From Escherichia phage HMD-9, in sequence record PV287714.1: 64,000 nt of DNA. One strand, 5' to 3'. Both the position numbers and the translations under genes were made by a program. How positions within the stretch are numbered: position 1 is the stretch's first letter; each line of letters begins with the position of its first letter. Below are positions 5,993 through 11,122 of the stretch, in pieces. The notes beneath the pieces were generated by a model. It was not told where the DNA came from. It made no database searches and saw only the letters and a program-made list of their open reading frames with translations.

Positions 5993-6673
5993 TTATTTTA
6001 ATGTTACGAAAGAAGAATTGCGTGTTTCACGAATTAAAACTGATCCGTCACGGTTAATGTAATAAATTAAGCTAAATAAAGTTTGGTGTGCTGACGCATG
6101 CTCAAAACTTGTTGGGTGAGATTTCCAATCCGGAGTTTCAGCAATCCATTGATAAATCCACCAAGGAACAGTACAGAATCCTGGATTTTTTCCAATCAGC
6201 TGAAGATTCGGGCTAAAGTTTTCCGGAAGAGTAAATACAGACGGCTTTTCAGATTCAATAATCTCAGCTACAGCTTGCTCGAATTTTTCTTCAACAAAAG
6301 GAGTATCTTCAATCAAAACATCGGTATTTTCGGGAATTTTATCCGTTTCGACTACTTCAATTTTAATGTCAGATTTAACCGGAGAATCAATCAGAAGTGC
6401 TGCCTCTGGATTGACTTCTTCATCGTCATATTTTAATCCGTCTGCGGCATCAGCAGCATCAATTAAGTCTTTAATAGATAACCCATCAGTCTCTGGCATA
6501 GGTTCACTAGCGAGCTTCTGGAGGGCTTCTTCAATATCATTAACGATATTATCAAAAGATTTATTCTTTTTGACCTTTATACCAAACTGTTCAGCATATT
6601 CAGCTAATTTAGCTTTAGCTTCTTTATTATCATCAAGAGCCTTCAGCTCTGCAATATAATCTTTATCTATCAT
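5993..6673 (-). CDS. inh: inhibitor of prohead protease Inh
   Basis: 226 aa, position between hoc and segD as in T4. Confidence 0.85.
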   Translation of the reverse strand: MIDKDYIAELKALDDNKEAKAKLAEYAEQFGIKVKKNKSFDNIVNDIEEALQKLASEPMPETDGLSIKDLIDAADAADGLKYDDEEVNPEAALLIDSPVKSDIKIEVVETDKIPENTDVLIEDTPFVEEKFEQAVAEIIESEKPSVFTLPENFSPNLQLIGKNPGFCTVPWWIYQWIAETPDWKSHPTSFEHASAHQTLFSLIYYINRDGSVLIRETRNSSFVTLK

Positions 6674-6686
6674 AATATTTCCTCAG

Positions 6687-6694
6687 TATAAATA
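6687..6694 (+). promoter_or_regulatory. late-promoter-like TATAAATA upstream of segD
   Basis: Exact TATAAATA 29 nt upstream of segD ATG. Confidence 0.4.
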
Positions 6695-6722
6695 TAGATA
6701 TATTTATTACTCGGAAAATAGT

Positions 6723-7340
6723 ATGTACCACTTTGTATATGAAACGACAAATCTAATAAATGGTAAAAAGTATATAGGAAAACACTCTACTGATGACTTG
6801 AATGATGGCTACCTTGGTTCCGGTAAAGCAATTCAGCAGGCTATAAAGAAATATGGTGAAAAGAATTTCTCTAGAACAATACTAAAAGAGTTTAAAACTT
6901 CCGAAGAAGCGTACATGTATGAAGAAGAAATTATAACTCCTGAACTAATAAAAAGCAAAAATTATTATAATATGAAACCTGGTGGAATTGGTGGAATTGT
7001 TATGACTGCAGAGGTTATAGCAAAGATGAAAGAATCTTCCGCTAAGAGATTTGAAAACTCACCGGGCACGGTATTAGGTACAACTTGTTACACCAATGGA
7101 ACTAAAAATATTTTTATTAAACCTGGAGAACTTGTTCCAGAAGGATTTGTAAAAGGGATGGTTCATCTTAATAGAAAGTCCAGAAAAGGATGTAAAGTCA
7201 AACCGACTACCACAGGAACTTTTTGGGTCAATAATGGAGCAATAAATAAATTAATACAACCAGACGGTATTATTCCCGACGGATTTATTAAAGGTCGTCT
7301 CATGAAAAGAGACTCTAAAGGCAAATTTAGTAAGGCATAA
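6723..7340 (+). CDS. segD: GIY-YIG homing endonuclease SegD
   Basis: 205 aa; N-terminal GIY-YIG motif (FVYETTNLINGKKYIGKH), free-standing, T4 position. Confidence 0.88.
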   Translation: MYHFVYETTNLINGKKYIGKHSTDDLNDGYLGSGKAIQQAIKKYGEKNFSRTILKEFKTSEEAYMYEEEIITPELIKSKNYYNMKPGGIGGIVMTAEVIAKMKESSAKRFENSPGTVLGTTCYTNGTKNIFIKPGELVPEGFVKGMVHLNRKSRKGCKVKPTTTGTFWVNNGAINKLIQPDGIIPDGFIKGRLMKRDSKGKFSKA

Positions 7341-7342
7341 TT

Positions 7343-8851
7343 ATGGATATTAAAGTACATTTTCACGACTTCAGTCATGTACGCATCGATTGTGAAGAGA
7401 GCACGTTCCACGAATTAAGAGATTTCTTTTCGTTTGAGGCCGATGGATATAGGTTTAATCCTCGCTTCAGATATGGCAACTGGGATGGACGAATCCGTCT
7501 TTTAGATTATAATCGCCTTCTTCCATTCGGCTTAGTCGGGCAAATTAAAAAGTTCTGTGATAACTTTGGCTATAAAGCTTGGATTGACCCACAGATTAAC
7601 GAAAAAGAAGAATTATCAAGAAAAGATTTTGATGAATGGCTTTCTAAATTAGAAATCTATTCAGGAAATAAAAGAATTGAACCGCATTGGTATCAAAAAG
7701 ATGCAGTGTTCGAAGGATTAGTTAATCGTCGTAGAATTCTTAATCTTCCAACATCCGCAGGTAAATCCTTAATTCAAGCTTTGCTTGCTCGTTATTATTT
7801 GGAAAATTATGAAGGTAAAATTCTTATCATTGTTCCAACAACTGCTCTGACAACTCAGATGGCTGATGACTTTGTTGACTATCGTTTATTCAGTCATGCA
7901 ATGATAAAGAAAATTGGCGGTGGAGCATCAAAAGATGATAAATATAAAAATGATGCACCAGTCGTTGTTGGTACATGGCAAACTGTAGTAAAACAGCCAA
8001 AAGAATGGTTCTCACAGTTTGGAATGATGATGAATGATGAATGCCATCTTGCTACAGGAAAAAGTATTTCATCTATCATATCAGGTTTAAATAACTGCAT
8101 GTTTAAATTTGGTTTGTCCGGTTCATTGCGTGATGGCAAAGCTAATATCATGCAGTATGTTGGAATGTTTGGTGAAATATTTAAGCCAGTAACGACTTCT
8201 AAATTAATGGAAGATGGACAAGTAACTGAGTTAAAAATTAATAGTATTTTTCTTCGCTATCCCGATGAGTTCACTACTAAATTAAAGGGAAAAACTTACC
8301 AAGAAGAAATAAAAATTATTACTGGACTCAGTAAAAGAAATAAATGGATCGCTAAATTAGCTATTAAGCTTGCGCAAAAAGATGAAAACGCTTTTGTCAT
8401 GTTTAAACACGTATCACACGGTAAAGCTATTTTCGATTTAATTAAAAATGAATACGATAAAGTTTATTACGTATCAGGGGAAGTTGATACCGAAACACGC
8501 AACGTAATGAAAACCTTAGCTGAAAACGGTAAAGGAATAATTATAGTAGCTAGTTATGGTGTATTTTCTACTGGTATTTCAGTTAAAAATCTGCATCACG
8601 TTGTTTTAGCACACGGTGTTAAATCTAAAATTATTGTATTGCAAACAATAGGTCGCGTATTACGTAAGCATGGTTCTAAAACAATCGCAACGGTCTGGGA
8701 CCTCATAGATGATTGCGGTGTTAAGCCAAAATCTGCTAATACGAAAAAGAAATATGTTCATTTGAACTATCTTTTAAAACACGGCATTGATCGTATTCAG
8801 CGCTACGCAGATGAAAAATTTAATTACGTAATGAAAACAGTTAATTTATAA
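7343..8851 (+). CDS. uvsW: UvsW RNA-DNA/DNA-DNA helicase
   Basis: 502 aa; Walker A LPTSAGKS and DECH helicase motifs. Confidence 0.93.
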   Translation: MDIKVHFHDFSHVRIDCEESTFHELRDFFSFEADGYRFNPRFRYGNWDGRIRLLDYNRLLPFGLVGQIKKFCDNFGYKAWIDPQINEKEELSRKDFDEWLSKLEIYSGNKRIEPHWYQKDAVFEGLVNRRRILNLPTSAGKSLIQALLARYYLENYEGKILIIVPTTALTTQMADDFVDYRLFSHAMIKKIGGGASKDDKYKNDAPVVVGTWQTVVKQPKEWFSQFGMMMNDECHLATGKSISSIISGLNNCMFKFGLSGSLRDGKANIMQYVGMFGEIFKPVTTSKLMEDGQVTELKINSIFLRYPDEFTTKLKGKTYQEEIKIITGLSKRNKWIAKLAIKLAQKDENAFVMFKHVSHGKAIFDLIKNEYDKVYYVSGEVDTETRNVMKTLAENGKGIIIVASYGVFSTGISVKNLHHVVLAHGVKSKIIVLQTIGRVLRKHGSKTIATVWDLIDDCGVKPKSANTKKKYVHLNYLLKHGIDRIQRYADEKFNYVMKTVNL

Positions 8852-8863: not shown

Positions 8864-8876
8864 TTTGGAGAAAAAG

Positions 8877-9107
8877 ATGTTACTAGAATTTAAACAATTT
8901 CTTTATGAAGCTTCTATTGATGAATTTATGGGTAAAATTGCCTCTTGCCAAACATTAGAAGGTCTAGAAGAACTCGAAGCTTATTATAAGAAAAGAGTTA
9001 AAGAAACTGAATTAAAAGATACTGATGACATCTCTGTGAGAGATGCTTTGGCAGGAAAAAGAGCTGAATTAGAAGATTCAGACGATGAAGTAGAAGAAAG
9101 CTTTTAA
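8877..9107 (+). CDS. uvsW.1: hypothetical protein UvsW.1-like
   Basis: ATG with SD GGAG 6 nt upstream; track start at 8865 is TTG. Confidence 0.7.
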   Translation: MLLEFKQFLYEASIDEFMGKIASCQTLEGLEELEAYYKKRVKETELKDTDDISVRDALAGKRAELEDSDDEVEESF

Positions 9108-11110: not shown

Positions 11111-11122
11111 TATTTATAAATA
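11111..11122. promoter_or_regulatory. overlapping divergent late promoters for 26 (-) and 51 (+)
   Basis: TATTTATAAATA contains TATAAATA in both orientations between divergent late genes. Confidence 0.5.

Follow-up and report, generated by a model that had tools for sequence, protein, structure and literature searches.

The closest described relative of the gene analysed here is segE of phage T4 (SegE, P18060), which lies at T4 112057-112674 between inh and uvsW and is listed as encoding an active endonuclease with uvsW as its target gene (PMC2988022, Table 1). In crosses between T4 and RB30, homing of SegE was almost 100% (Kadyrov et al. 1997, as cited in PMC2330249). According to the same source, homing needs an intact gene as well as DNA homology and brings co-conversion of flanking markers. 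The position of the SegE cut is given slightly differently in different secondary sources. Kadyrov is said to have found in 1997 that the enzyme cuts at the 5' end of the RB30 uvsW gene and that it cuts T4's own DNA less well. A second free-standing GIY-YIG endonuclease of T4, SegD (P19895), resides between genes 23 and 24. Its gene has no promoter of its own (PMC2988022), is expressed as early RNA and middle protein (PMC9697503), and is reported not to home in a 2018 Virology paper. I-TevI, from the td intron of T4, differs from SegE in being intron-encoded and in having another C-terminal DNA-binding region, and its expression, too, is from a late promoter (PMC2988022). Finally, SegG and SegF of T4, which are likewise free-standing, cleave a conserved gene next to their own (gene 32 and gene 56, respectively) in the phage that lacks the endonuclease and co-convert flanking markers, a process termed "intronless homing" in which host promoters are shared or embedded (PMC2988022, PMC2330249). 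The system described below differs from these two in its target gene and in that the promoter it appears to share is a late one, placed in a 49-bp divergent spacer.

The locus lies in a window of 64,000 nucleotides from Escherichia phage HMD-9 (PV287714.1). The window is part of a Tequatrovirus genome; over 6600-7400, it shares 100% identity with Salmonella phage Lv5cm and about 98-99% with T4. An ATG-initiated open reading frame at 6723..7340 (+) encodes 205 amino acids plus a stop codon. The best overall explanation, to which we give a probability of about 0.9, is that it is the free-standing homing endonuclease gene segE, sitting behind the resident uvsW late promoter in the inh-uvsW slot of a Tequatrovirus. 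The locus has the following features:

5993..6673, minus strand: inh (prohead protease inhibitor; hoc.1), the divergently transcribed upstream neighbour.
6687..6694, plus strand: late-promoter box, exact TATAAATA, identical in T4 and in the segE-less phages T2, RB30 and fPS-90 (there upstream of uvsW).
6701..6708, minus strand: AATAAATA (7 of 8 positions), probable late promoter of inh, whose ATG follows after 27 nt.
6711..6722, plus strand: leader segment that has diverged from segE-less phages; GGA at 6713-6715 is a weak Shine-Dalgarno.
6723..7340, plus strand: segE coding sequence, with the GIY-YIG nuclease domain at about residues 1-92 and the C-terminal half at about residues 95-205.
7241..7248, plus strand: AATAAATA (7 of 8 positions) within segE, towards its 3' end; candidate embedded promoter of uvsW, whose ATG follows after 94 nt.
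7343..7478, plus strand: recoded 5' block of uvsW, about 136 nt, that accompanies segE; in alleles without segE, probably the target region of the enzyme.
7343..8851, plus strand: uvsW helicase gene, downstream partner in the late unit and published SegE target gene (PMC2988022, Table 1).

The encoded protein matches T4 SegE at 200 of 205 positions (97.6%) across its whole length, with the substitutions K47N, A96T, E97D, T120K and L149P (window residue first), and a protein of phage phiC600P9 is 100% identical to it. In two T4 records (NC_000866 and AF158101), the 205-residue inh-uvsW gene at 112057-112674 carries the name segE, and segD is the opposite-strand gene at 106561-107232, flanked by genes 23 and 24. 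The same assignment, segE to inh/uvsW and segD to 23/24, is given in Table 1 of the review by Edgell, Gibb and Belfort (PMC2988022). Judged by sequence and position, the open reading frame is the ortholog of T4 segE and not of segD, the name under which it had first been annotated; the T4 annotation and the full-length identity to SegE refute that name. With T4 SegD, the protein shares 46% identity over 95 amino acids (SegD residues 4-98), in the nuclease half alone, and the protein comparison found no C-terminal similarity to SegD. The place where segD would be expected is also empty. Between the end of gene 23 (1873) and the start of gene 24 (1957) is a spacer of 83 bp (1874-1956) without segD, which in T4 is a minus-strand gene of 672 bp in that spacer. 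The open reading frame at 6723-7340 is about 4.8 kb away. The 23/24 spacer keeps a hairpin-like GGGACCTTCGGGTCCC and the TATAAATA box of gene 24 (1922-1929). The feature is thus already known, as T4 segE behind the known uvsW late promoter, and the value of our analysis is mainly that of a correction: the segD label would attach the wrong literature, that of a reportedly non-homing enzyme, to a gene whose T4 counterpart homes at about 100%.

Other parts of the initial annotation agree with what we found. The gene is indeed flanked by minus-strand inh (5993..6673) and plus-strand uvsW (7343..8851), but it is not the lone plus-strand gene it was said to be, as uvsW has the same orientation and begins only 2 nt after the segE stop codon. 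Diverged SegE homologs occupy the same inh/uvsW slot in NP4 (Gelderlandvirus, 64%) and WSPA (Muldoonvirus, 44%). The homologous loci are at 1493-2128 in Salmonella phage NP4 and at 1501-2148 in Serratia phage WSPA, and homologs at 34-39% were seen in unrelated slots, in a tRNA cluster (Stenotrophomonas phage Marzo) and between clamp-loader genes (Synechococcus phage ME01).

The reading of the gene as a free-standing endonuclease with an N-terminal GIY-YIG motif also stands. The N terminus, MYHFVYETTNLINGKKYIGKH, carries the two GIY-YIG half-motifs, and with 36.8 bits the protein clears the cut-off of 25 set for the Pfam model PF19835 (SegE_GIY-YIG). The general model PF01541 (GIY-YIG) reaches 21.3 bits, slightly under its cut-off of 22.6, and TIGR01453 stays below its own (33 versus 56); PHROG 314, "homing endonuclease," matches at 4e-43. 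Residues Y6, Y17, G19, H21, E67, Y82 and N83 do not vary among 8 aligned homologs (34-98% identity), and all five differences from T4 SegE lie outside the family-invariant columns. When a profile of these 8 homologs was compared with the PDB, the best match was the catalytic domain of I-TevI (1MK0, 1LN0), weak at E = 0.02 and covering residues 5-84. This match came out on top because the profile was used instead of the single sequence, for which a phmmer search of the PDB returned spurious weak matches alone, e.g., a phage tail tube protein at E = 0.002. SegE Y6, Y17 and N83 align with Y6, Y17 and N90 of I-TevI, and E67 aligns with E75 within one position. The Arg27 segment of I-TevI falls in a gap of this weak profile alignment, with H21 and K43 as invariant alternatives; the gap holds equally for T4 SegE, which is listed as active (PMC2988022). 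An AlphaFold2 model made without an alignment shows a beta-beta-alpha-beta-alpha order in the N-terminal half, an order that fits the GIY-YIG fold in a model too poor (mean pLDDT 43) to carry weight. On these conserved residues, the gene looks functional and the window variant may be active.

The C-terminal half (about residues 95-205) is the presumed DNA-binding region; Pfam gave no match to this half alone. It contains two copies of a motif of about 27 residues, GTxxxxNGxxNxxIxPxxxxPxGFxKG, encoded at 7077-7157 and 7212-7292 (SegE residues 119-145 and 164-190) and 44% identical to each other. The second copy is conserved in the family and matches the C terminus of a PHROG of HNH endonucleases; Pfam has no model for the motif.

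The exact TATAAATA upstream of the gene was correctly reported: it lies at 6687-6694 (+), with 28 nt between the box and the ATG, which is 29 positions past the last box base. The window holds 14 exact boxes versus 9.0 +/- 3.0 in shuffled sequences, a number reached in 6 of 100 shuffles, such that the count alone is no better than chance. Their placement is clearly non-random: 9 of the 14, including that of segE, lie 17-34 nt upstream of an ATG-initiated reading frame on the same strand, and the 28-nt spacing before segE is typical of the other boxes in the window. The spacer between inh and segE (49 bp, divergent) is identical in T4 from the box to the ATG, and an exact plus-strand box is also present in the Gelderlandvirus NP4 and the Muldoonvirus WSPA, making three phage genera in total. 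A "predicted late promoter" is annotated at the same box in fPS-90, before uvsW, and in fPS-2, before segE. A promoter scan found no sigma-70-like promoter upstream of segE. Together, these sequence features make TATAAATA at 6687-6694 a plausible late promoter of segE. The box on the minus strand (6701..6708) is likely the late promoter of inh, arranged back to back with the plus-strand one. In NP4 and WSPA, an exact TATAAATA stands at the corresponding position, and a perfect 9-nt inverted repeat (6688-6696 and 6699-6707) reflects the two opposed boxes. The review mentions a late promoter upstream of inh, about 4.8 kb from segD (PMC2988022), a position that fits this minus-strand box. A second pair of back-to-back late promoters resembling the inh/segE pair is seen at 11111-11122, between genes 26 (-) and 51 (+), where a plus-strand and a minus-strand TATAAATA, both exact, overlap.

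To whom does this promoter belong? The flanks of the locus are matched by 508 phage records, about 158 with segE and about 335 without it (T2, RB30, fPS-90 and others); by tblastn, SegE is found at an identity of at least 95% in 158 phage records. In the segE-less phages, inh and uvsW are about 50 bp apart and the flanks are otherwise collinear. The gene is thus polymorphic for presence and absence between otherwise collinear genomes, as are free-standing homing endonuclease genes. The segE-less spacer is identical to the window through ...TATAAATATAGATATATTTATTAC, which ends at window position 6710, and its box stands 29 nt before the uvsW ATG. The box appears to be the resident uvsW late promoter because segE-less phages keep an identical box at the same distance. 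From this comparison, segE is best described as a promoter-less insert in the uvsW leader that borrows the uvsW late promoter. The review calls the segE promoter "endonuclease-specific" and places it in the upstream non-coding region (PMC2988022). This wording is right on the position, and the comparison of alleles shows a promoter that is, by its sequence, older than the insert. In segE-less leaders, a short upstream ATG (ATGGTATTTAGACATGACTGA; T2 800-830) overlaps the uvsW start and has no obvious Shine-Dalgarno. In segE-bearing phages, the last bases of segE supply uvsW with an AAGG Shine-Dalgarno (window 7332-7335).

Late expression, which had been predicted from the box, agrees with published data: in a T4 time course, segE, inh and uvsW all belong to the late class, both for RNA and for protein (PMC9697503, supplementary files 4-6), SegE being detectable from the same time point as UvsW and Inh (PMC9697503), and the spacer is identical in T4. 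For UvsW, expression from a late promoter is established (PMC3016281). The further suggestion that late timing serves homing, when replicated genomes are available as targets, fares less well. The timing itself is supported, but it may simply be inherited from the insertion site, since the promoter also precedes uvsW in phages without the endonuclease. The idea of an adaptive timing is weakened because the promoter would belong to the resident gene.

Could the gene still be segD, with an endonuclease-specific late promoter that evolved to time cleavage to replicated targets? The GIY-YIG domain and the TATAAATA box both exist, and the N-terminal domain of T4 SegD is 46% identical. However, T4 segD encodes 223 amino acids on the opposite strand between genes 23 and 24 and is expressed as early RNA and middle protein, the corresponding slot in the window is an 83-bp spacer, and the C-terminal halves are unrelated. 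Furthermore, a promoter present in phages lacking the endonuclease is not endonuclease-specific. We consider this explanation practically untenable. A degenerating endonuclease gene without activity, a mere passenger at the late stage of the homing cycle, would account for the five amino acid differences from T4 SegE, including P149L (T4 residue first), for the lack of an alignable equivalent of Arg27 and for the weak ribosome-binding site. Yet the reading frame is full length, with neither frameshift nor premature stop, every family-invariant residue is retained, an identical protein exists in another phage, and 158 records carry SegE at an identity of at least 95%; the absent Arg alignment is a property of the active T4 enzyme as well (PMC2988022). 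Decay thus seems very improbable.

A more serious alternative concerns the promoter of uvsW: the upstream TATAAATA could serve segE only, with uvsW transcribed chiefly from the embedded AATAAATA at 7241-7248. The review implies as much when it states that the promoter of the downstream gene is embedded in segE (PMC2988022), and the box at 7241-7248, 94 nt before uvsW, may be the one it refers to. Its 7 of 8 matching positions become an exact TATAAATA at the equivalent codons of Serratia phage WSPA. But every Tequatrovirus and Gelderlandvirus copy has the box at 7 of 8, and the box falls on conserved codons (NNGxINK), where promoter conservation and coding constraint are indistinguishable and where the latter can explain the conservation. 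A terminator scan found no terminator between segE and uvsW, and in segE-less phages the upstream box is the sole candidate promoter for uvsW. We regard this alternative as rather unlikely, and we favour the upstream box as the resident uvsW promoter, shared by segE.

With the box as resident promoter and segE as a promoter-less gene in the uvsW leader, the following mechanism can be proposed. Late in infection, RNA polymerase modified by gp55, gp33 and gp45 would start transcription from TATAAATA at 6687-6694, near position 6700 if the usual geometry of T4 late promoters applies. The resulting transcript would carry segE and then uvsW, whose coding regions are 2 nt apart with no predicted terminator between them. 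In a mixed infection, SegE would cleave the 5' end of uvsW in the allele that lacks segE, and double-strand-break repair would copy segE and flanking markers from the segE-bearing genome, as published for T4 x RB30. The segE-bearing genome itself would be protected by the first ~136 nt of uvsW, where the recoding mostly affects silent positions. The check that had been proposed for the locus, cleavage of the inh-uvsW junction in a segE-less relative, is already in the literature for SegE with RB30 (Kadyrov et al. 1997, as summarized in PMC2988022 and PMC2330249).

The recoded block (7343-7478) is 73.7% identical to T2, RB30 and fPS-90, and identity rises to 97-99% directly downstream; to the left of the insert, alleles with and without segE differ by about 2.5%, with no hot spot. 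The UvsW protein is nearly unchanged across the block (five substitutions and one extra codon). The block type found in segE-bearing phages occurs at an identity of at least 95% in 157 records, against about 158 records with segE, and the T2-type block in 335, against about 335 without it. These figures, compared as totals and not record by record, fit a tight linkage with segE. The block is probably the protected SegE target region, as its divergence from segE-less alleles suggests, and such a pattern is expected for a free-standing homing endonuclease with a diverged, poorly cleaved target of its own. A distant blastn search for the donor lineage of the block returned nothing closer than 80% except mosaics. 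The locus would make a tidy example of a selfish endonuclease gene that uses a promoter of its host and brings along a resistant version of its target, although it raises no new question.

A few segE-less phages (UFV11, UFV05 and CJY920) are mosaic, switching from the T2 type to the type of segE-bearing phages at uvsW nt ~88-105, with two different breakpoints, and continuing in the latter type to nt ~137. The identity class of 80-90% for the uvsW block comprises fourteen records. Tentatively, and with the odds somewhat against it, these observations could be read jointly as a promoter-less cassette of about 770 bp (6711-7478), the mosaics being partial gene-conversion products or cleavage-resistant empty sites. 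Such a cassette may consist of the diverged leader, the segE reading frame and the recoded ~136 nt, dropped behind the resident uvsW late promoter, and if so, this would differ from the 2010 review, which speaks of an "endonuclease-specific" promoter (PMC2988022). The breakpoints in UFV11, UFV05 and CJY920 may also mark the SegE cleavage region. As for the target gene itself, uvsW is in this window a 502-residue reading frame (7343-8851) followed by a separate 80-residue one (8865-9107, uvsW.1), and the T4 RefSeq record gives a single uvsW coding sequence of 1764 bp with a note on sequence discrepancies.
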